This document shows, in pieces, positions 10,881 through 48,292 of a stretch of DNA of 64,000 nucleotides. Location: assembly GCF_022846255.1 (NCBI RefSeq), contig NZ_AP025682.1. One strand, 5' to 3'. Both the position numbers and the translations under genes were made by a program. Origin of the DNA: Escherichia coli (lineage in GTDB: Bacteria > Pseudomonadota > Gammaproteobacteria > Enterobacterales > Enterobacteriaceae). How positions within the stretch are numbered: position 1 is the stretch's first letter; every line of letters starts with the position of its first letter. Below the pieces are notes generated by a model that was given only the letters and a program-made list of their open reading frames with translations, did not search any database and was not told where the DNA came from.

Positions 10881-11094
<214 letters not shown>

Positions 11095-28169: not shown

Positions 28170-29418
28170 TGTTAGCCTCCACATGCGTCATTGCTGCTGT
28201 CGTTTTACGATTCAAAATCGGGTTAAGGATCAGATAGCTCAGCGCGCCACCTAATACCGCGTTGACCGGAACAATTCCCGGTAACCAGTGGCCTGCGGCA
28301 ATCCCCAGCGCGACCGCCAGAATCGCCACCCAATTGACACTCATCATACGCGTGGTCGCAAAGTGCTCATAGCGGCGACGGTTCATCAGATAATCAGCGA
28401 TGATCACGCCGCCCACCGGAGGAATAGCTGCCGAAAGGAAGGTCAACCAGCCGACAAAATTGTTATACAGCCATAATGCGCAGACCGTACCGATAATACC
28501 GTTAATCACCGAAAGGGTTTTGCTCGACATACCGGTAATGTTGGCGAAACCTAAACCCGACGCATAGAGCGCGTTATCGTTGGTGGTCCAGATATTCAGC
28601 CCCAGCACCACAATCGCAGGCAGCAGCAGGCCCTGAGCAATCATCACATCAGAGATATCCGCCATCCCCAGTGCCGCCGCGCCCGCTGCACCGAAAATAA
28701 ACATCAACGAGTTGCCGAGGAAAAAGGCCACCATCGCCACCAGCACCGCCAGTTTGGCATTACGACCAAACCGGACAAAGTCAGCGGTGAGCGTGCCCGC
28801 ACTGATAAATGACCCCACAACCAGCGCCAGCGCGACATTGAAATCTAACGGTTGTGCGGGAACGACCGCTTTTAATGCGTCCAGGCCGCCCATGCCGTTA
28901 ACGGCCAACCACACGGAATAACCGCCAAGACAGGCGATAGCCGGAACCGCAATCACCGAAAGAACTGTCAGCGCCGAAATGCCAAAGAAGACGGTGACGG
29001 TCATCAGTAAACCGGAGACGGCAATCAGCAAATTAATATCCAGCCCGGTTGCCTTGCCCACCGGAATAGCAAACATCGCCACGCCAACGCCAAACCAGCC
29101 AACCTGGGTGCCGCCCAGCAGCAGTGAAGGCAACCATGAGCCTTTAACACCAAACGAGAAGCGAGCAAGAAGATGGGTGGTCAGGCCGGTTTTTGCGCCA
29201 ATGTAACCAAGAAATGAAGTGTAAATACCGAGGAGAAGATTACCGATGAGAACTGCGAGGAAGAAATCATGATAGCTAAGACCGGTTCCGAGAGTGCCGC
29301 CGGTCCACATACTGGCGGAAAAGAAGGTTAATCCCAGCATGACGAACGTCAATGCCAATACCCCTTTCCGCGCCGACTGCGGGACTGGCCCCTGGCTAAA
29401 GTTGTTATCTTGCGACAC
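28159..29418 (-). CDS. codB: cytosine permease
   Basis: 419 aa membrane protein [19 protein letters not shown]...; 11-nt overlap with codA start. Confidence 0.95.
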
Positions 29419-29574
29419 GAAATTCCCCCTTTTTGCTGTTTGAAACCCAAAAAATCCGCCGCATTCTATTCATCTGAAGATAAAAAGCAATCGTTTTCGT
29501 AGGGGGATATATTTTTTATATGAATGAGTGCAAAAAGGCGGGGGAAACTTATCTGTGTAAAAACAGTGGGTAGG

Positions 29575-29650
29575 CATGATAAGACGCGTCAGCGTCGCAT
29601 CAGGCATCTGCGCACGGTGTCGGATGCGGCGCGAGCGCCTTATCCGACCT
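29575..29650. repeat. REP pair between codB promoter region and prpE 3' end
   Basis: GATAAGACGCGTCAGCGTCGCATCAGGC ... GTCGGATGCGGCGCGAGCGCCTTATCCGACC. Confidence 0.75.
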
Positions 29651-31535
29651 ACTCTTCCATCGCCTGGCGGATCTGATCCAACGACGCCGGATCATCAATG
29701 GTCGTCAGATCCCCCGGATCGCGTCCTTCGCAAATCGCCTGGATCGTGCGGCGCAGCATTTTTCCGGATCGCGTTTTTGGCAATTGCGAGACAAACCAGA
29801 CGTGCGCCGGGCGGCCAAAGTTGCCAATCTGGCTGTCCACCAGCGCCATAATCGCCTTCTCTTGCGAGTGCGCCACCTCACGGTCTTCCAGACTGTCGCT
29901 CTCTTTCGGAATGACAAACGCCACCGCCACCTGCCCTTTCAGCGCATCTTTCACCCCAACCACCGCCACTTCGGCAACGCCCGGATGACTGGAGATACTC
30001 TCTTCAATCTCACGCGTACCCAGCCGATGTCCGGCAACGTTAATCACATCGTCAGTGCGCCCGAGAATAAAGTGATAACCGTCAGCATCGCGGATGCCCC
30101 AGTCAAAAGTGGCGTACACCGGACGGGAAAACAGCGACCAGTACGTCTTCACAAAGCGGTCGTCGTCGCCCCAGATGGTCTGAATACAGCCTGGCGGCAA
30201 TGGCCCCTCCACCACCAGCATCCCTTTCTCATTGACGCCACACGGTTCACCGGTGACTTCATTGAGCAACTGCACGTTATAGCCATACATCGGCACGCCG
30301 GGGCTTCCCAGACGCGTCGGTCTGTCATCCAGACCGCGAGCAATCGCCATAATCGGCCAGCCGGATTCGGTCTGCCAGTAGTTGTCGATGACCGGCACAT
30401 CCAGCGTATTGCTCACCCAACTGGCGGTCGGCTCGTCCAGCGGTTCTCCAGCCAGATAGAGCACTTCCAGCGACGAAAGATCGTGTTTGCGAATTTCAGC
30501 GGTAGGGAATTTTTTCAGCACGCGAATGGCGGTCGGCGCTGAGAACATGCGGCTAACCTGATATTTCTCGACAATTTTCCACCACACGCCGCAGTCCGGC
30601 CAGGTCGGCAATCCTTCGTAAACGATAGTCGCCATCCCCGCCAGCAGCGGCGCGTAAACGATATACGAATGCCCTACCACCCAGCCGATATCCGAAGCAC
30701 AAAAGAACACGCCGCCCGCTTTGCCGCCAAAAATGATGTCCATCGAGGTCGCCAGCGCCACCGCATATCCGCCGACATCACGCTGCACACCTTTAGGTTT
30801 GCCGGTCGTGCCGGAGGTGTAGAGAATGCAGGAGGTTTCGTTGGATTCCAGCCACGCCACCGGCACCCGCGCGCCGATGTGCTGATGGCGCAACGACGCG
30901 AAATCGACATCCCGCCCGCTAACGCGCGCCATTTTCGCCAGCCCGCGATCCACCAGTAAAACGTGACGCGGCTGATGCTGTGCCTGACTTATCGCATCGT
31001 CGAGCAATTTTTTATACGGAATGATTTTACCGCCGCGCGCCCCGGCATCAGCCGAGACAATCAGCACCGGTTTAGCGTCATCAATTCGCGTTGCCACGCT
31101 GTGCGAAGCAAATCCCCCAAACACCACCGAGTGAATAGCACCAATGCGCGCGCAGGCCAGCAGGGTAATATGCGCTTCGGCAATCATCGGCATATACACC
31201 AGCACCCGATCGCCACGCTGCACGCCCAGTGAGCGCAGCATTGACGCCACCGCATTCACTTCGTCATGCAGCTGGCGGAAGGTAAAGGTACGCTCTTCCT
31301 CTGTTTCCGAAGAGACGGCAATCAATGCCAGCGCCCCTGGCTGTTTCTCCAGCCAGCGATCGATAGCGTTGTGACACAAGTTGGTTCGGCCTTCACAAAA
31401 CCAACGGGCAAACGGCGGGTTGCTGTGGTCTAGCGTTTGCGTAAAGGGCGTCTGCCAGTCAATACGCCGGGCCTGCTCGGCCCAGAACTGCTCCGGTTCG
31501 TTAATCGAACGCTGATAAAATTCGCTAAAAGACAT
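29649..31535 (-). CDS. prpE: propionyl-CoA synthetase
   Basis: 628 aa acyl-CoA synthetase MSFSEFYQRSINEPEQFWAEQARRID... Confidence 0.95.
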   Translation of the reverse strand: MSFSEFYQRSINEPEQFWAEQARRIDWQTPFTQTLDHSNPPFARWFCEGRTNLCHNAIDRWLEKQPGALALIAVSSETEEERTFTFRQLHDEVNAVASMLRSLGVQRGDRVLVYMPMIAEAHITLLACARIGAIHSVVFGGFASHSVATRIDDAKPVLIVSADAGARGGKIIPYKKLLDDAISQAQHQPRHVLLVDRGLAKMARVSGRDVDFASLRHQHIGARVPVAWLESNETSCILYTSGTTGKPKGVQRDVGGYAVALATSMDIIFGGKAGGVFFCASDIGWVVGHSYIVYAPLLAGMATIVYEGLPTWPDCGVWWKIVEKYQVSRMFSAPTAIRVLKKFPTAEIRKHDLSSLEVLYLAGEPLDEPTASWVSNTLDVPVIDNYWQTESGWPIMAIARGLDDRPTRLGSPGVPMYGYNVQLLNEVTGEPCGVNEKGMLVVEGPLPPGCIQTIWGDDDRFVKTYWSLFSRPVYATFDWGIRDADGYHFILGRTDDVINVAGHRLGTREIEESISSHPGVAEVAVVGVKDALKGQVAVAFVIPKESDSLEDREVAHSQEKAIMALVDSQIGNFGRPAHVWFVSQLPKTRSGKMLRRTIQAICEGRDPGDLTTIDDPASLDQIRQAMEE

Positions 31536-31574
31536 AATGCTCTCCTGTTGAACTTACGCCTTACCGCCGTTTAC

Positions 31575-33026
31575 TTAAATGACGTACAGGTCGAGATACT
31601 CATTGACCGGCATCTGTTCCAGGCGAGTTCTGTCGAGAGAAACCTCCAGAATGCGCTGCTGCTGGCGAGTCGGGAACTGGCGCGCGAGATTGATTTTGAA
31701 TTTATCGACCAGCTTCGGAATGCCATCCTGACGGCGGCGAGCATGACCAATGGGGTACTCCACCACCACTTCTTCAAAGCGCGTGCCGTCGGTGAACTCA
31801 AGGGTTATGGCATTGGCGATGGCGCGTTTTTCCGGGTCGTGGTAGTCAGCGGTAAACGCCGGATCTTCAAAGCAATTGCTCTTCTCGCGCAGGGCGTCGA
31901 TGCGTTTATCTTGCGCAACGTTGTCCTCGTAATCTGCCGCCGTTAAGCGCCCGAACAGCAGCGGGATCGCCACCATGTACTGAATGCAGTGGTCGCGGTC
32001 AGCCGGGTTATTGAGCGGCCCTTTTTTGTCGATGATGCGAATACAGGCTTCGTGGGTGCGAATGGTCACTTTTTCGATATCTGCCGCCGTTTTGCCTGCT
32101 GCCTGCATCTGTTCATAGAGCGTCATCGCTGCTTCAACTGCCGTCTGGGAGTGGAACTCCGCCGGAAAGGAGATTTTGAACAGCACATTTTCCATGACGT
32201 AAGAACCGTACGGACGCTGGAAGCGGAACGACTCACCTTTAAAGGAGACGTCGTAGAAACCCCACACCGGCGCGGTCAGAGCTGACGGGTAACCCATTTC
32301 GCCCGTTTTCGCCATCAGCGCCAGACGTACCGCGCGGGACGTGGCATCGCCCGCCGCCCAGGATTTACGCGTACCGGTGTTCGGTGCATGACGATAAGTG
32401 CGCAGCGACTGTCCGTCTACCCATGCCAGCGAAACGGCGTTGAGAATTTCCTCGCGGGTCAGGCCGAGCATTTCGGCGACCACGGCGGTGGAAGCCACTT
32501 TCACTAACAGAACGTGGTCGAGACCAACGCGGTTAAAGGAGTTTTCCAGCGCGATGCAGCCCTGAATTTCATGGGCTTTGATCATTGCGGTCAGCACCTG
32601 TTTCATGGTCAACGGCGCTTTGCCGCTGGCGATCGCGTTGCGCGAAAGCCAGTCCGCCGTTGCCAGAATGCCGCCGAGGTTGTCGGAAGGATGCCCCCAC
32701 TCCGCCGCCAGCCAGGTATCGTTGAAATCGAGCCAACGGATCATCGCGCCAATGTTAAATGCCGCCTGGACGGGGTCGAGCTGAAACTGAGTTCCGGGAA
32801 CGCGCACGCCGTTGGGTACGACGGTGCCGGGGACAATTGGCCCCAGCAGTTTTTTACAGGCCGGATATTCGAGAGCTTCCAGACCGCAGCCGAGCGTGTC
32901 GAGCAGGCAGTAATGTGCGGTGTCGTAGGCTACTCTGGAGCTGATTTCGTAGTTCATCACGTAATCGACGATATCAACGATTTCACGATCAAATTCCGGG
33001 CGAATGTTGTTGATTTGAGCTGACAT
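31575..33026 (-). CDS. prpD: 2-methylcitrate dehydratase
   Basis: 483 aa. Confidence 0.95.
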
Positions 33027-33059
33027 TGGGTACGTTTCCTTATTGTTATTCGTAGAGGT

Positions 33060-34229
33060 TTACTGGCGCTTATCCAGCGCGACAAACTGGCGGTCTTCCG
33101 GTCCAACGTAATTGGCGGAAGGACGGATAATTTTGTTGTCCTGACGTTGTTCGATAATGTGCGCCGCCCAGCCAGTGACGCGGGCGATAACAAACAGTGG
33201 TGTGAACATCTCGGTGGGAACACCCATCATGTTGTAGGAAACAGCGGAGAACCAGTCGAGATTGGGGAACATCTTTTTGCTCTCCCACATCACTGTTTCC
33301 AGGCGATCGGCGATGTTGTACATCTTCAGCGAGCCGCCTTCCTGCGAGAGCTGCTTTGCCACGCGTTTGATCACCTGGTGGCGCGGGTCGGCGATGGTAT
33401 AAACCGGATGCCCAAAACCAATGACCACTTCTTTGTTTTCCACCCGCTTACGGATATCAGCTTCGGCTTCGCCCGGCGTTTCGTAGCGTTGCTGGATCTC
33501 CAGCGACACTTCATTCGCCCCGCCGTGTTTCGGCCCGCGCAGTGCGCCAATCGCGCCAATAATGGCGGAATACATATCAGAGCCAGTGCCCGCAATCACC
33601 CGGCTGGTAAAGGTGGAAGCGTTAAACTCGTGTTCGGCGTACAGCACCAGCGAGATATGCATCGCCTTTTCCCAGCTTTGCGACGGCTTTTCGCCGTGCA
33701 GCAGATGCAGGAAGTGACCGCCGATAGAGTCGTCATCAGTTTCCGGCTGGATGCGTTCGCCGTTGTGGCTGTAGTGATACCAGTAGAGAAGAATCGAACT
33801 AAGTGACGCCAGCAGTTTGTCGGCAATATCCCGCGCACCAGAAACAGTGTGCCCCTCTTTTTCTGGCAGCGTGCAGCCGAGCGCGGAAACGCCGGTGCGC
33901 ATAACATCCATCGGGTGTGACGCCGCCGGTAAGGCTTCCAGCACGGTACGCACGTTAGCCGGTAAACCACGCTGGGCTTTCAGTTTCGTTTTGTAGGCGG
34001 CGAGTTCGTCACGGGTTGGCAGTTTGCCGTGGATCAGCAGGTGCGCCACTTCTTCAAATTCACAATGTTCCGCCAGATCAAGAATATCGTAGCCACGGTA
34101 ATGCAGGTCGTTGCCGCTTTTACCCACGGTGCAGAGCGCCGTATTGCCCGCCGGAACGCCGGAAAGTGCCACCGATTTTTTCGGTTTAATGACATGGGTA
34201 CTGTTTTGCAGGATCGTTGTGTCGCTCAT
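33060..34229 (-). CDS. prpC: 2-methylcitrate synthase
   Basis: 389 aa citrate-synthase family. Confidence 0.95.
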
Positions 34230-34271
34230 ATTGTCCTCGTCATTGTTATCATTTGTAGGGTCGAGATTGTT

Positions 34272-34374
34272 GTCGGATGCGACGCTATGCGTCTTATCCG
34301 ACCTACAGTTCAGTTCACCTCGTAGGCCTGATAAGTCGCGTCAGCGGCGCATCAGGCATCGGTTGTCGAATACA
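34272..34374. repeat. REP pair between prpC and prpB
   Basis: GTCGGATGCGACGCTATGCGTCTTATCCGACCTAC ... GTAGGCCTGATAAGTCGCGTCAGCGGCGCATCAGGC. Confidence 0.75.
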
Positions 34375-34388
34375 ACCAACGGGCGTTT

Positions 34389-35279
34389 TTATTTCACCTG
34401 ACCACGGGCAAACAGGTCGTCGAGCTTCTCTTCGTACTGGTAGTAGTTGATGCTTTCGTACAGCTCGTTGCGGGTCTGCATGGTGTCGATGACGCTTTTC
34501 TGTGTGCCTTCCTGACGCAGGATGTTGTAGACATGTTCAGCGGCGCGGTTCATGGCGCGAAACGCTGAAAGCGGGTAGAGCGCCATTGCGACATGGGCGC
34601 TGCGTAATTCGTCGGTGGTAAACAGCGGTGTTGCGCCAAATTCGGTAATGTTGGCGAGGATCGGCACCTGCACCGCATCGGCAAACTGGCGATACATGGT
34701 GAGTTCGGTAATCGCCTCCGGGAACAGCATTTCGGCACCCGCTTCAACATAGGCCTCCGCTCGTTCGATTGCCGCATCCAGCCCCTCTACCGCCAGCGCA
34801 TCGGTGCGCGCCATGATCACAAAATCAGGATCGGTTTTCGCATCCACCGCCGCGCAGATCCGATCCACCATCTCTTCTTTCGAGACGATCGCTTTATTCG
34901 GACGATGACCGCAGCGTTTCGCACCAACCTGATCTTCAATATGCAATCCTGCCGCACCGGCTTTAATCATTGATTTCACCGTACGCGCCACGTTAAAGGC
35001 TGAAGAACCAAAACCGATATCCGCATCCACCAGCAGCGGCAGCGAACAAACGTCGGTAATACGGCGAATGTCAGTCAGCACATCATCAAGAGTAGAAATA
35101 CCGAGATCGGGCAGCCCCAGCGATCCTGCCGCCACGCCACCGCCGGAGAGATAAATCGCCTGATATCCGGCACGCTGCGCCAACAGCGCATGGTTGGCGT
35201 TAATGGTGCCAACAATTTGCAACGGGGTTTCTTTGCTAAGTGCAGCGCGAAACGCTTTACCTGGAGAGTGTAGAGACAT
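34389..35279 (-). CDS. prpB: 2-methylisocitrate lyase
   Basis: 296 aa. Confidence 0.95.
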
Positions 35280-35326
35280 AGCCCATCCTTTGTTATCAAC
35301 TTGTTATTTGCGTTGATAAACACAAA

Positions 35327-35341
35327 GCAAGGGGTGTGCCA
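35327..35341 (-). promoter_or_regulatory. sigma-54 promoter of prpBCDE (TGGCAC-N5-TTGC on minus strand)
   Basis: Plus-strand GCAAGGGGTGTGCCA reverse-complements to TGGCACACCCCTTGC, about 50 bp upstream of the prpB ATG. Confidence 0.8.
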
Positions 35342-35414
35342 CAATTGACTGAATAAAATTAAATGTTTAATTTCAATGAGTTAAAGATAAATTCATGAAG
35401 TAATCCGCAAATAT

Positions 35415-35474
35415 GCGTTTCAGTTAACGTTTCAGGCAATGTTTCACCGCGTTTCATTGCAACAATTATGAAAC
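35415..35474. promoter_or_regulatory. PrpR enhancer (UAS): repeated GTTTCA half-sites and palindrome GTTTCAT-N10-ATGAAAC
   Basis: GTTTCAG, GTTTCAG, GTTTCAC, GTTTCAT then ATGAAAC at 35468-35474; lies 80-150 bp upstream of the sigma-54 promoter, next to prpR. Confidence 0.65.
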
Positions 35475-35517
35475 AAGGCTAAACCCAATATTCGGTTTCT
35501 TAACTTTGCGGTGCGCT

Positions 35518-37104
35518 ATGGCACATCCACCACGGCTGAATGACGACAAACCGGTTATCTGGACGGTATCTGTAACGCGGCTGTTCGAGTTATTTCGCGA
35601 TATCAGCCTCGAGTTTGATCACCTGGCGAATATCACCCCTATCCAGCTTGGCTTTGAAAAAGCGGTGACCTACATCCGCAAGAAACTGGCAAACGAACGC
35701 TGCGACGCCATCATCGCTGCTGGCTCTAACGGCGCATATCTTAAAAGCCGCCTGTCAGTGCCAGTTATTTTGATTAAACCGAGCGGCTACGATGTGTTAC
35801 AGGCACTGGCAAAAGCCGGAAAACTCACCTCTTCTATCGGCGTTGTCACCTATCAGGAAACCATTCCAGCGCTGGTGGCGTTTCAAAAGACCTTTAATTT
35901 GCGCCTCGACCAACGTAGTTACATCACCGAAGAAGACGCCCGCGGGCAAATCAATGAGTTGAAAGCCAACGGCACCGAAGCGGTGGTCGGCGCGGGGCTG
36001 ATTACCGATCTGGCAGAAGAAGCCGGAATGACCGGAATTTTTATCTATTCCGCCGCCACCGTGCGCCAGGCGTTCAGCGATGCGCTGGATATGACGCGCA
36101 TGTCTCTACGGCATAACACTCACGATGCCACCCGCAACGCCCTGCGTACTCGTTACGTGCTGGGCGATATGCTCGGTCAATCACCACAGATGGAACAGGT
36201 GCGGCAGACTATTTTGCTGTATGCCCGCTCCAGTGCGGCGGTGTTGATTGAGGGGGAAACGGGGACGGGCAAAGAGCTGGCGGCCCAGGCGATTCATCGG
36301 GAATATTTTGCCCGCCACGATGCGCGACAGGGCAAAAAGTCACATCCGTTTGTTGCCGTCAACTGCGGGGCGATTGCCGAATCGCTGCTGGAAGCAGAGC
36401 TGTTTGGCTATGAGGAAGGGGCGTTCACCGGCTCGCGACGCGGAGGTCGCGCCGGGCTGTTCGAAATTGCCCACGGCGGTACGCTGTTTCTGGATGAGAT
36501 TGGCGAAATGCCGCTACCTTTGCAGACTCGCCTGTTACGGGTGCTGGAAGAAAAAGAGGTCACCCGCGTCGGCGGGCATCAGCCTGTTCCGGTGGATGTG
36601 CGGGTCATTAGCGCCACTCACTGCAATCTGGAAGAAGATATGCAGCAAGGGCAGTTTCGCCGTGACCTGTTTTATCGGCTGAGTATTTTACGCCTGCAAC
36701 TGCCGCCGCTACGCGAGCGGGTGGCGGATATTCTGCCGCTGGCGGAAAGCTTTTTGAAAGTGTCTCTGGCGGCGCTCTCCGCCCCGTTTTCTGCCGCATT
36801 ACGCCAGGGGTTACAGGCAAGTGAAACTGTGCTGCTGCGCTACGACTGGCCGGGCAATATTCGAGAACTGCGCAATATGATGGAGCGACTGGCGCTGTTT
36901 TTAAGTGTGGAACCGACGCCGGATTTAACGCCGCAATTTTTGCAGCTGCTACTGCCGGAACTGGCACGCAAGTCGGCGAAGACTCCCATTCCAGGCTTGC
37001 TGACAGCACAACAGGCACTGGAGAAATTTAATGGCGATAAGACAGCAGCGGCGAATTATTTAGGTATCAGCCGAACGACGTTCTGGCGGCGGCTGAAAAG
37101 CTGA
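35518..37104 (+). CDS. prpR: sigma-54-dependent activator of propionate catabolism
   Basis: 528 aa from ATG 35518 ([15 protein letters not shown]...); AAA+ GETGTGKE and GAFTGS motifs; C-terminal HTH. Confidence 0.95.
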
Positions 37105-37204
37105 ACTGCCGAATGCAGCGCGAACGCTTTATCCGGCATAAATTTCAATAGATGATGATCACCGATAAACTTACGCATCGGGGATGTTTACATAGGATTC
37201 AGAA

Positions 37205-37480
37205 TTACTTCTTCTTATAAATATTTGCCGTGCCGTGGATCTTATTGTCAGTTTGACCAGAGGTCAGTACCAACACATCAGCCCCTTTTTCATCGGCTTT
37301 TTTGATCAAATCTTCTTTCGCATCTGCGGTCGACATTTCATTACTGGTTGAAATATCACCTATTTTTTCATATTGCGATGCAACCTTTTCAAATTCCGCT
37401 TTGGTCATTAATTCTGCGGCATAGACATTGGTAACGGCAAACGCTAACGCACCGACTAACATTTTAGAGATTATTTTCAT
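37205..37480 (-). CDS. yahO: small periplasmic protein YahO (DUF1471)
   Basis: 91 aa with signal peptide [21 protein letters not shown]. Confidence 0.85.
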
Positions 37481-37626
37481 ATTACGGCTCCAGAGTTGTT
37501 ATCACACTATCACCCACCCACATTATTGGGTTGATTAATAATTAGTTCAGTCAGGGCATAAACGCCAGTAACCGGAAATAAGACACTTTGTGATCTCTCT
37601 CGCACCCGATTATTTTTGGTAGAAAT

Positions 37627-38301
37627 ATGATGAAGTTACTTCACTTATTTATGGATGAAATCACTATGGATCCTTTGCACGCCGTTTACCTGACCGTAGG
37701 ATTGTTCGTGATTACTTTTTTTAATCCGGGAGCCAATCTCTTTGTGGTAGTACAAACCAGCCTGGCTTCCGGTCGACGCGCAGGGGTGTTGACCGGGCTG
37801 GGCGTGGCGCTGGGCGATGCATTTTATTCCGGGTTGGGTTTGTTTGGTCTTGCAACGCTAATTACGCAGTGTGAGGAGATTTTTTCGCTTATCAGAATCG
37901 TCGGCGGTGCTTATCTTTTATGGTTTGCGTGGTGTAGTAGCATGCGCCGCCACTCAACACCGCAAATGAGCACACTACAACAACCGATTAGCGCCCCCTG
38001 GTATGTCTTTTTCCGCCGTGGATTAATTACCGATCTCTCTAACCCGCAAACCGTTTTATTTTTTATCAGTATTTTCTCAGTAACATTACATGCCGAAACA
38101 CCAACATGGGCACGATTAATGGCCTGGGCGGGGATTGTGCTCGCATCAATTATCTGGCGAGTCTTTCTTAGTCAGGCGTTTTCTTTGCCCGCAGTGCGTC
38201 GTGCTTATGGGCGTATGCAACGCGTTGCCAGTTGGGTTATTGGTGCAATTATTGGTGTATTCGCGCTACGCCTGATTTACGAAGGGGTGACGCAGCGGTG
38301 A
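37627..38301 (+). CDS. yahN: LysE/RhtB-family amino acid exporter
   Basis: about 223 aa membrane protein. Confidence 0.85.
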   Translation: MMKLLHLFMDEITMDPLHAVYLTVGLFVITFFNPGANLFVVVQTSLASGRRAGVLTGLGVALGDAFYSGLGLFGLATLITQCEEIFSLIRIVGGAYLLWFAWCSSMRRHSTPQMSTLQQPISAPWYVFFRRGLITDLSNPQTVLFFISIFSVTLHAETPTWARLMAWAGIVLASIIWRVFLSQAFSLPAVRRAYGRMQRVASWVIGAIIGVFALRLIYEGVTQR

Positions 38302-38317
38302 GCAGATAATTTACTCT

Positions 38318-38560
38318 CTACGTAATCAACCTGATTTGCCGAATCCCAACCATCGGCGATGATAGCCCCCGTAATGCGTGGTCCTTATTTCCGATAAGTT
38401 TACTTGAGTCTTTAGCTTCCCATTTCAGCCCACTCTCCCCTGTGTGGGCTTTTTTCATTGTTCTGACCCGTCCTGAATAGCCAAACAATGGCAATGTTCC
38501 ACTTTGCAGGGATGATAATAAGGGGATCTGATTCAGAAAAGTTTTGAAAAGTTGGACCGC
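38318..38560 (-). CDS. yahM: small uncharacterised protein, YahM-like
   Basis: Convergent with yahN; 81 aa from the internal ATG (MAVQLFKTFLNQ...). Identity from memory, start uncertain. Confidence 0.45.
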   Translation of the reverse strand, partial: AVQLFKTFLNQIPLLSSLQSGTLPLFGYSGRVRTMKKAHTGESGLKWEAKDSSKLIGNKDHALRGLSSPMVGIRQIRLIT

Positions 38561-39184
38561 CATCGAGGCCTCGAACCCCGTACCATACAACAATCCTGGT
38601 TGTCGTCTGCTCTTCCTGATGAGCTAATGGCGGTTTTTGATATGAGCCTTACAACATATTTTCTGTCAGGCTTGAGTGCGATGCGTAAGATACAGAAAAG
38701 ACCCCACACAAACATGATGGAATTATGATTTTTTTCATATGAATGTCAACCCACACATTCACAAAACATCTGTATGAGAACATTTTTTATACACCATATA
38801 GCTGCGAAACCACTACTGGTGCTTTTTTAAGCGAAACTCCGCCGTTCACAACAAAATATCGGCGAAAAAGGAGGGGGAATGCCATTTGGCATACAGATAC
38901 ACAGATGAAATGATGACCTGCTTTGCGATTCACTCTCTGGTGGAATAACAACTTGCAGGTGGCTCTCTTAAATAAAAATAAACGTCGCAGATAATAAAGC
39001 TCTGATTAAACCATACACTATCAGAAATCGCTCATAACTAACGTGTAAAGTAGTGGAGTTAATTTAACAATCTGAATTTACGCTATAGGTTTACCACTAC
39101 TTTGATATTATTTCGCTCTCCTTAACTAAAAAGTTAAGTGGAGCGAAGTTAATATGTTAAACCACAGGATGTTTATTAATTTTT

Positions 39185-40234
39185 TCAGTCTGTTAGTGTG
39201 CGATTATCGATAACAAAACGATATTTCACATCACCACGCAGCATTCGCTCATAGGCTTCATTAATTTGATCGGCCCGAATCATCTCTATATCAGCCACGA
39301 TGCCATGTTCGGCGCAAAAATCGAGCATCTCCTGAGTTTCTGGAATGCCGCCAATCATAGAACCAGCTATCGCGCGGCGTTTCATGATCAGGTTGAAAAC
39401 TTCCGGGGATTTATGCGGTGTCGCAGGCGCACCAACCAGCGTTATGGTGCCATCGCGCTTCAGCAAGGTGGTAAAATCGTCGAGATTATGTGGCGCAGCT
39501 ACTGTATTCAAAATGAAATCGAAACTCTTCACATGAGCCGCCATCTCATCGGCATTGCGTGAGTTAACAACTTCATCGGCCCCCAGGGCTTTTGCCGCTT
39601 CGCGTTTTGACTCAGAAGTGGTAAATGCCACCACATGCGCCCCCATCGCGTGGGCCAGTTTAATCCCCATATGTCCCAGACCGCCGATGCCGACCACGCC
39701 CACTTTTTTACCCGGCCCGGCCTGCCAGTGGCGTAGCGGCGAGTACGTGGTGATTCCTGCACACAATAAAGGAGCCACCGCCGCCAGCTGCTCTTGCGGG
39801 TGACGAATACGCAGAACATATCGCTCATGAACGACGATCTGTTGTGAGTAGCCGCCCAGAGTATGGCCCGGTTCATCCGGTGTCGGCGAGTTATAGGTTC
39901 CGGTCATGTGATCACAGTAGTTTTCCAGCCCATCTTCACACTCTTCGCAATGTTTACAACTGTCGACAATGCAGCCGACACCAACCAGATCGCCCGGCGC
40001 ATGTTTTTCTACCTGATCACCAACGGCTACCACGCGCCCCACAATTTCATGACCCGGCACGCAGGGGTAAACCGTCCCCGCCCACTCCGAACGGACCTGG
40101 TGGAGATCGGAATGGCAGACGCCACAGTAAGCGATTTCGATTTTGACATCATGCGGTCCCGGTTCACGCCGGGTGATATCCATCGGTTCAAGGGGTTGTT
40201 TAGCGGAATATGCACCAACAGCTTTGATCTTCAT
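39185..40234 (-). CDS. yahK: NADPH-dependent aldehyde reductase (zinc alcohol dehydrogenase family)
   Basis: 349 aa; CGVCHSDLH and GHEIVG zinc-ADH motifs. Confidence 0.93.
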   Translation of the reverse strand: MKIKAVGAYSAKQPLEPMDITRREPGPHDVKIEIAYCGVCHSDLHQVRSEWAGTVYPCVPGHEIVGRVVAVGDQVEKHAPGDLVGVGCIVDSCKHCEECEDGLENYCDHMTGTYNSPTPDEPGHTLGGYSQQIVVHERYVLRIRHPQEQLAAVAPLLCAGITTYSPLRHWQAGPGKKVGVVGIGGLGHMGIKLAHAMGAHVVAFTTSESKREAAKALGADEVVNSRNADEMAAHVKSFDFILNTVAAPHNLDDFTTLLKRDGTITLVGAPATPHKSPEVFNLIMKRRAIAGSMIGGIPETQEMLDFCAEHGIVADIEMIRADQINEAYERMLRGDVKYRFVIDNRTLTD

Positions 40235-40320
40235 TGTGTTTACTCCTGATTAGCTATGTGTATTTGGCGATGCCTGATATGTCATCGCGGCAAAACGCGT
40301 CCATTGAATATAGCCAATAT

Positions 40321-41277
40321 TTAAACCACCCGATCCAGCCCCAACATGCCGCGAGCCTGAATGAAACAGAGCAGCAACGTTCCCCATAAGGCCATCGTCA
40401 GGTAGGGGCTTATACCGAGAATATTGAAGCCGCTTTCAATAATTTGCAGAAGAAACAGCGCCAGCACCATACCAATTATCCGCCCGCTGCCGCCGTCCGG
40501 ATTAACCCCGCCGAGTACTGCCGCGAGGATTGACACCAGCAAGTACGATTCGCCATAAGAGGCCTTAGCCGAGTTGAGTTTCGACATCATCAAAAATGCC
40601 GCTACCGCACAAAGCAAGGCGGAAATGACATACACCCATATCAGCACCCGACGAGTGTTAATACCGGAGTAAAGTGTTGCTCGTTCGTTAGAACCAATCA
40701 GATAAATGGCTTTACCGAGCGGCGTTTTCTCCAGCAATATCCACAGCCCCAGCGCCACTGCGGTAAACAACCACATCGGTAGCGGAATACCGAACCACTG
40801 TGCATGATTCAACCACAGCACCCATGAGGGATAATTGGCAATGGCGCTACCGCCTGTCACCAGAATATTTACCCCTTTGAGCAACGTCATCATCCCAAGC
40901 GTTGCAAGAATTGGCGACACTCGAATACCAGCAATCAATACGCCGTTACATAAACCGATTATCACCGCCGCGCCAGCGCCTGCCAGTAACGTAGCGACAA
41001 CCGTAGCAATACCCGGTGGATACTGAGTCGCCACCCACGCCATCACCAGTGAACAGGCGTTAGCAGTGGCTATAATTGACAAGTTAATGCCACCGCAAAG
41101 CATGGTCACCGCCATAGCCAACGCCAGAATGCCCAGCACGGGCATTTGCGAAGCGACGGACTGGAAATTACTTATCGACCAGAAAATCTCCGGCATAGTA
41201 ATGCTGAAGGCGGCAACAGTTAGCACCAGCAGGCCGATCAAGTAAAACTCAACGTTATTACGCCACGATTTTTTCAT
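40321..41277 (-). CDS. sugar ABC transporter permease (RbsC/LsrD-like)
   Basis: Polytopic membrane protein; ATG at 41277 overlaps the stop of the upstream permease as ATGA. Confidence 0.8.
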   Translation of the reverse strand: MKKSWRNNVEFYLIGLLVLTVAAFSITMPEIFWSISNFQSVASQMPVLGILALAMAVTMLCGGINLSIIATANACSLVMAWVATQYPPGIATVVATLLAGAGAAVIIGLCNGVLIAGIRVSPILATLGMMTLLKGVNILVTGGSAIANYPSWVLWLNHAQWFGIPLPMWLFTAVALGLWILLEKTPLGKAIYLIGSNERATLYSGINTRRVLIWVYVISALLCAVAAFLMMSKLNSAKASYGESYLLVSILAAVLGGVNPDGGSGRIIGMVLALFLLQIIESGFNILGISPYLTMALWGTLLLCFIQARGMLGLDRVV

Positions 41278-48104: not shown

Positions 48105-48292
48105 CAGACTGCCTGATGCGCTACGCTTATCAGGCCTACAGATTCTTGCGCCACTCGTAGGCCGGATAAGGCGTTCACGCCGCATCCGGCTGTGGTGGCC
48201 AATGCCTGAAGCGCCACGCTTATCAGGCCTACAGATTTCCGCGCCATTCGTAGGCCGGATAAGGCGTTCACGCCGCATCCGGCAGAAACAAC
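48105..48292. repeat. tandem REP/BIME cluster between yahI and yahG
   Basis: Two ~95-bp units, each CTGATGCGCTACGCTTATCAGGCCTACAG...GTAGGCCGGATAAGGCGTTCACGCCGCATCCGGC. Confidence 0.8.

Follow-up and report, generated by a model that had tools for sequence, protein, structure and literature searches.

The divergent prp locus

The window analysed here, a 64,000-nt stretch of Escherichia coli DNA, carries a prp locus that is complete and presumably functional, with the prpBCDE operon and the regulator gene prpR facing away from each other. The prpR-prpB intergenic region spans 238 nt (35280-35517), with prpB on the minus strand on one side and prpR on the plus strand on the other, and the gene order is that of E. 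coli (codB-prpEDCB / prpR-yahO-yahN). All five prp open reading frames (5/5) are full length and score above their NCBIfam equivalog cut-offs. The preliminary description had taken the promoter layout as confirmation that the operon is intact; the operon is indeed intact, because all five reading frames are full length, and a promoter on its own cannot confirm this. The genes and the elements of the control region are as follows.

29649-31535 (minus): prpE, propionate-CoA ligase; NCBIfam equivalog above cut-off, intact
31575-33026 (minus): prpD, 2-methylcitrate dehydratase; NCBIfam equivalog above cut-off, intact
33060-34229 (minus): prpC, 2-methylcitrate synthase; NCBIfam equivalog above cut-off, intact
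29649..34229 (minus): the prpC-prpD-prpE block, all intact
34389..35279 (minus): prpB, methylisocitrate lyase, gene 1 of the operon; NCBIfam equivalog NF008455, 556 bits
35315 (minus): predicted prpBCDE transcription start (rule of PMC4591121), 36 nt from the ATG at 35279; predicted only
35327..35341 (minus): predicted sigma-54 promoter PprpB, TGGCAC (-24) N5 TTGC (-12); sole exact match in the window
35342..35416 (no strand): AT-rich spacer between enhancer and promoter, 75 nt, 76% AT; presumed bending/IHF region
35371..35383 (plus): best candidate IHF core, TTTCAATGAGTTA, which departs from WATCAANNNNTTR at one position and follows an A/T tract
35417..35446 (minus): three more TGAAAC direct repeats (35446..35441, 35434..35429, 35422..35417), exact matches; putative PrpR half-sites
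35451..35474 (minus): putative distal PrpR dyad, GTTTCA-N12-TGAAAC in prpB orientation; nearly invariant in Escherichia and Citrobacter
35518..37104 (plus): prpR, divergent sigma-54 activator and propionate operon regulator; NCBIfam NF011953, 1007 bits

The PrpR protein contains, by Pfam, a PrpR_N sensor, a sigma-54-interaction AAA+ domain (Sigma54_activat, 221 bits), a lid, and a C-terminal HTH_8 domain. Its loop reads GAFTGS at residue 301, so that the promoter has, encoded next to it, a cognate AAA+ activator whose loop is of the GAFTGA type; the serine agrees with the E. coli PrpR sequence as reported (PMC3162934). The intergenic region is approximately 97% identical to that of E. coli K-12 and has the same length of 238 nt in both, with all named elements unchanged. 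Among 5,426 complete E. coli genomes none (0) is identical to the window at this locus, the closest reaching 97.5-98% in the intergenic region and, across 12 kb (29000-41000), 98.6%; the collection therefore has no member of the window's lineage. The substitutions private to the window lie mostly in the AT-rich spacer.

Promoter, half-site array, and spacer

A -24/-12 element of the form TGGCAC-N5-TTGC had been described ahead of prpB, and it is found there as TGGCACACCCCTTGC at 35341..35327 on the minus strand, 48 nt upstream of the prpB ATG, as the only occurrence with zero mismatches in the 64 kb window. The GG and GC dinucleotides are exactly 10 bp apart and oriented toward prpB. Bonocora et al. 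reported a K-12 sigma-54 ChIP-seq peak upstream of prpB with the motif GTGGCACACCCCTTGCT (PMC4591121), to which the 17-mer at 35342..35326 of the window is identical, and a genomic SELEX study found an RpoN holoenzyme peak within the prpR/prpB spacer (PMC8743547). Table 1 of Bonocora et al. gives a predicted start 36 nt from prpB, and the rule used there, 19 bp downstream of the motif centre, yields position 35315 in the window; EcoCyc also listed the prpB promoter as predicted at the time of that paper (PMC4591121). A TGGCA[CT]-N5-TTGC motif is conserved across 12 orthologous intergenic regions. These matches support the assignment of 35341..35327 as the probable sigma-54 promoter of prpB, with sigma-54 occupancy taken from the K-12 literature.

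Upstream of the promoter, exact hexamers start on the plus strand at 35417, 35429, 35441, and 35451 (GTTTCA) and at 35469 (TGAAAC). The positions given in the preliminary description (four GTTTCA and one TGAAAC) hold, but the naming is reversed when the array is read in the direction of prpB, where it consists of four TGAAAC and one inverted GTTTCA. In that direction the layout is GTTTCA (35474..35469), 12 nt, TGAAAC (35456..35451), 4 nt, TGAAAC (35446..35441), 6 nt, TGAAAC (35434..35429), 6 nt, and TGAAAC (35422..35417). Counted from 35315, the predicted start, the hexamers begin at -107, -119, -131, -141, and -159; the nearest is 75 nt from the -24 element and the far end of the array 133 nt from it. 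The window holds 42 GTTTCA/TGAAAC hexamers in total (0.66 per kb), and the five within 58 nt at 35417-35474 form the sole cluster of at least three within 60 nt in the 64 kb. The palindrome noted earlier at 35451-35474 is real, with arms GTTTCAT/ATGAAAC and 10 nt between them, and is nested within a second pair, TGTTTCA (35440-35446) and TGAAACA (35469-35475). A degenerate third half-site, GTTGCA, with one mismatch, lies inside the distal dyad at 35463..35458 and adjoins TGAAAC. The proximal TGAAAC copies, being 10-12 bp apart, would fall on approximately the same face of the helix.

A review of Salmonella sigma-54 activators gives the PrpR enhancer as CGTTTCATGAAACG, citing a 2004 footprinting study (PMC4987338), and GTTTCA and TGAAAC are the two halves of this consensus. 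The comparison with published PrpR footprints proposed in the preliminary description, made here through that review consensus, shows agreement in the half-sites but not in their arrangement: the window lacks the palindrome in its contiguous 14-bp form, and within the intergenic region nothing comes closer than three mismatches, no better than chance. Since the contiguous form is absent, the case for PrpR binding to the Escherichia array comes from the half-sites and their conservation. These support 35417-35474 as the likely PrpR enhancer, while the number of half-sites that PrpR occupies is something we infer.

The segment between array and promoter was described earlier as AT-rich and suited to IHF-assisted looping. 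It is 76% AT as compared to 48% for the window, so the first part of that statement is correct, but its IHF site is a one-mismatch match. Besides the best core (35371..35383), other one-mismatch cores occur at 35357-35372, and 69 such matches occur in the window; because they are this common, the exact IHF position given here is a provisional placement. Secondary sources state that prpBCDE expression needs PrpR, 2-methylcitrate, sigma-54, and IHF, and they name CRP among the requirements as well.

Conservation and arrangement of the half-sites across lineages

Full-length PrpR orthologues were collected in a scan using one genome per species; the figures cover the matches listed, which do not include Salmonella, and Citrobacter was used as its nearest proxy. 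Among these matches, PrpR identity is 93% for Escherichia albertii, 83-84% for two Citrobacter, 63% for two Photorhabdus, and 58-63% for several Burkholderiales. A complete prpB gene lies immediately divergent from prpR in 8 of the loci listed (E. albertii, Citrobacter, Photorhabdus, and three Burkholderiales), and these eight together with two further loci (L013 and L016) contain a TGGCA[CT]-N5-TTGC promoter with a GTTTCA/TGAAAC cluster 42-135 nt upstream.

An unbiased count of all 6-mers in the 300 nt upstream of prpR, taken over 11 lineages from the matches listed, puts GTTTCA/TGAAAC at the top. Two or more copies occur in 10 of the 11, in a range that reaches from Escherichia to Burkholderiales; ranks 2 and 3 are one-base shifts of the same hexamer. 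The regions upstream of PrpR orthologues contain 0-6 hexamers, with at least three in 11 of 14, where 0-0.4 would be expected from the rest of each locus. When 380-nt stretches in the 3 kb upstream of 35 unrelated sigma-54 activator genes are compared, the richest one per gene holds 0-3 hexamers, mostly 1-2.

Of the 5,140 E. coli records that match the 58-nt array (35417-35474), 4,714 carry it without a single difference (100% identity). For the window's 75-nt spacer, 1,070 complete genomes reach the search threshold and none matches above 94.7%, and in an alignment of Escherichia sequences the spacer varies in sequence and is constant in length. An invariant array next to a variable segment of fixed length is the pattern expected of a protein-binding array joined to its promoter by a bendable segment, and is as expected if length and bendability of the spacer count for more than its sequence.

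The arrangement of the half-sites differs between lineages. Citrobacter has two dyads, a distal GTTTCA-N12-TGAAAC in common with Escherichia and a proximal, perfect GTTTCATGAAAC; in Escherichia the proximal position is taken by direct TGAAAC repeats at steps of 10, 12, and 12 bp, one of which has decayed to TGAAAT in E. albertii. The Photorhabdus counterpart of the distal dyad is GTTTCA-N5-GTTTCATGAAAC. In every lineage but Citrobacter, GTTTCA lies on the prpR side and TGAAAC on the prpB side, and the orthologous loci have 3 to 6 recognisable half-sites. Counting the distal GTTTCA and the degenerate GTTGCA, Escherichia has six half-sites, two facing four, and a layout of two facing several is also seen in Oxalobacteraceae (2 + 4 in L012 and 2 + 3 in L015).

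It is conceivable, although we consider it improbable, that Escherichia remodelled the promoter-proximal PrpR site by replacing a compact dyad with phased direct TGAAAC repeats. If so, the DNA-binding domains of PrpR would be tethered flexibly and read half-sites in either orientation, with up to one half-site per subunit of a PrpR hexamer, and the change might explain why the E. coli prp promoter is reported, in a secondary source, to be about threefold weaker than that of Salmonella. Six half-sites per hexamer was also considered as a general rule and dropped, as orthologues have 3 to 6.

The comparative picture is thus one of a half-site retained from Enterobacteriaceae through to Burkholderiales in a plastic arrangement, of an array that does not vary within E. 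coli, and of a spacer that changes in sequence from strain to strain at a constant length; it could help in redesigning PprpB-based sensors. No statement of this plasticity was found in the literature searched. It would be a modest addition to what is known of the PrpR enhancer, occupancy by PrpR being putative for each copy.

Several loci depart from the common pattern. In two Massilia (L008 and L009) the enhancer reads GTTTCA-N2-GTTTCA-N3-TGAAAC, and the region upstream of prpR has no match to the strict sigma-54 pattern. The operon divergent from prpR in L009 opens with ORFs of 102 aa and 557 aa followed by prpB, and L008 looks similar by sequence; we would guess at a small membrane protein and a transporter for the two ORFs. 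Two Janthinobacterium PrpR sequences (L007 and L010; 59-60% identity) have 0 and 2 hexamers upstream and no prpB within 3 kb on either side of prpR, and since the neighbouring ORF is different, their target operon may lie elsewhere. E. coli SCPM-O-B-9504 (NZ_CP144930.1) carries an IS1 in the prpR-prpB intergenic region together with a prpR annotated as a truncated pseudogene, and is a natural knockout of the prp control region.

Proposed mechanism, alternatives, and neighbouring elements

We interpret the region, with a probability of roughly 93%, as the divergent control region of prpR and prpBCDE, in which PrpR activates a sigma-54 promoter across an IHF-bent spacer. The promoter, the clustered half-sites, and the adjacent prpR are all present, in agreement with the classic enhancer-dependent layout named in the preliminary description. 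Sigma-54 RNA polymerase would sit at 35341..35327 as a closed complex unable to start alone. The N-terminal domain of PrpR would sense 2-methylcitrate, made from propionate by PrpE and PrpC, while its C-terminal helix-turn-helix would bind the GTTTCA/TGAAAC half-sites at -107 to -159. PrpR assembled on the array, whose centre lies some 130 nt ahead of the start, would form an ATPase oligomer that the IHF-bent AT-rich spacer returns onto the polymerase, and ATP hydrolysis would then open the promoter, with transcription beginning near 35315. The elements and their significance, their conservation, the linkage to prpR in distant lineages, and the intact genes were observed in this analysis; sigma-54 occupancy, the dependence on PrpR, sigma-54, and IHF, the 2-methylcitrate signal, and CRP input come from the K-12 and Salmonella literature. 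The exact IHF position, the start site, and the number of occupied half-sites are predictions within this scheme.

An origin of the hexamer cluster and the -24/-12 match by chance in an AT-rich intergenic region has nothing in its favour beyond the shortness of the motifs and is excluded: the Poisson expectation for a cluster of five hexamers is about 3e-5 per window, the promoter match is the sole exact one, the conservation of both elements extends from Escherichia to Burkholderiales, and thousands of E. coli genomes share an unchanged array. The half-site of Cra (FruR) is also TGAAAC, and CTGAAACGTTAAC (35435..35423, minus strand) resembles the Cra consensus, TGAAAC-GTTTCA, so that some or all of the hexamers might be Cra operators instead of PrpR sites. 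A Cra binding site was reported earlier in the prpB regulatory region, as noted in PMC5829826, but gel shift detected no binding of Cra to prpB DNA (PMC5829826), and the hexamers fit the published PrpR consensus (PMC4987338). In addition, hexamer clusters travel with prpR in Photorhabdus and Burkholderiales, a linkage so far from Escherichia that it favours PrpR over Cra and makes the Cra assignment very improbable.

A reading that is partly compatible with PrpR activation of prpBCDE takes the distal dyad (35451-35474) to be mainly an operator for PrpR's own divergent promoter, with a minor part in activation of the operon. With 44 nt between the end of the dyad and the prpR start codon, a prpR promoter would have to overlap the dyad; RefSeq names K-12 PrpR a 'dual regulator', and the two promoters have been described as overlapping and divergent (PMC9452892). 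However, a consensus scan for sigma-70 promoters over 35200-35600 found nothing, so that the prpR promoter was not placed and its overlap with the dyad is a deduction. Palacios and Escalante-Semerena 2004 reportedly identified the distal site as the higher-affinity PrpR site of the prpBCDE enhancer, and a mainly autoregulatory role appears possible but on the unlikely side. Less likely still, the spacer could act through intrinsic curvature or CRP-induced bending in place of a specific IHF site. Its varying sequence and a 75-nt length that is fixed in Escherichia fit such a role, as do the single mismatch in every IHF core present and the literature, where secondary sources have CRP acting on both divergent promoters via a site that overlaps the PrpR operator. 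On the other side, a need for ihf function in Salmonella is reported in secondary sources, and where strains differ within the best IHF core they do so at its four unconstrained NNNN positions. A CRP consensus scan of the region gave matches with 3-4 mismatches, against a background of 394 matches with three or fewer in the window; at this chance level the published CRP site is not placeable from sequence.

The general layout, with a bend separating a -24/-12 promoter from activator sites some 100-160 bp upstream, is that of the NtrC-glnAp2 and NifA-nifH systems, which differ from the prp region in activator, signal, and site sequence. The closest relative is K-12 prpR-prpBCDE (PprpB, as in the pPro vectors), with the same genes in the same order and an identical or nearly identical sigma-54 motif, set of five hexamers, and leader; the few substitutions relative to K-12 are nearly all in the AT-rich spacer, the exceptions being one immediately upstream of the distal dyad and another immediately downstream of the -12 element. 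The feature is the already-known PprpB promoter with its PrpR enhancer, a textbook enhancer-dependent promoter that already serves in propionate-inducible expression vectors and biosensors, and it has little discovery value. Salmonella enterica prpR-prpBCDE (Palacios and Escalante-Semerena 2000, 2004) is alike in its sigma-54 promoter, GTTTCA/TGAAAC enhancer, IHF, and 2-methylcitrate. By the published consensus Salmonella has the contiguous palindrome CGTTTCATGAAACG, and Citrobacter likewise carries the contiguous form GTTTCATGAAAC, whereas Escherichia does not, the window having direct TGAAAC repeats in its place. NorR-norVW of E. coli also pairs a ligand-sensing sigma-54 activator with a divergent target and several enhancer sites that aid oligomer assembly, all three of which are needed for the ATPase-active oligomer (PMC2831303). 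NorR differs from PrpR in its sensor domain and site sequence, and its enhancer consists of three dyads where the window has one dyad and phased direct repeats.

Further elements lie near the promoter. TGTTATCAACTTGTTA at 35291-35306 (plus strand) contains two TGTTA direct repeats 11 bp apart (TGTTA-N6-TGTTA), the core layout of an ArcA box, which occurs once in the 64 kb against 0.07 expected. It lies in an inverted repeat (35293-35319) and, counted from the predicted prpB start, occupies roughly +10 to +25. The 13 nt TAACAAGTTGATAACAA at this site are invariant in Escherichia and Citrobacter and are an exact match to the IHF consensus as well. Park et al. 2013 mention an ArcA site upstream of prpR, predicted by weight matrix and lacking a ChIP peak; the site in the window may be an anaerobic repressor site acting on prpBCDE. 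The inverted repeat folds as an 8-bp RNA hairpin with a z-score of -1.9. A function as RNA is disfavoured, since the z-score is weak and the predicted start at 35315 would leave half of the left arm untranscribed. An Rfam search of the intergenic region returned no RNA family. A near-perfect palindrome, AAACCCAATATTCGGTTT (35481-35498), lies between the distal dyad and the start codon of prpR; it is largely conserved in Escherichia and Citrobacter, and may belong to the prpR promoter or leader or else be a site for a regulator. Elsewhere in the window, Rfam naRNA4 (RF02564) matches occur at 10948-11026 (minus), 29573-29649 (minus), and 48160-48229 (plus); these are presumably REP-type repeat elements, and the one at 29573-29649 lies directly downstream of prpE.
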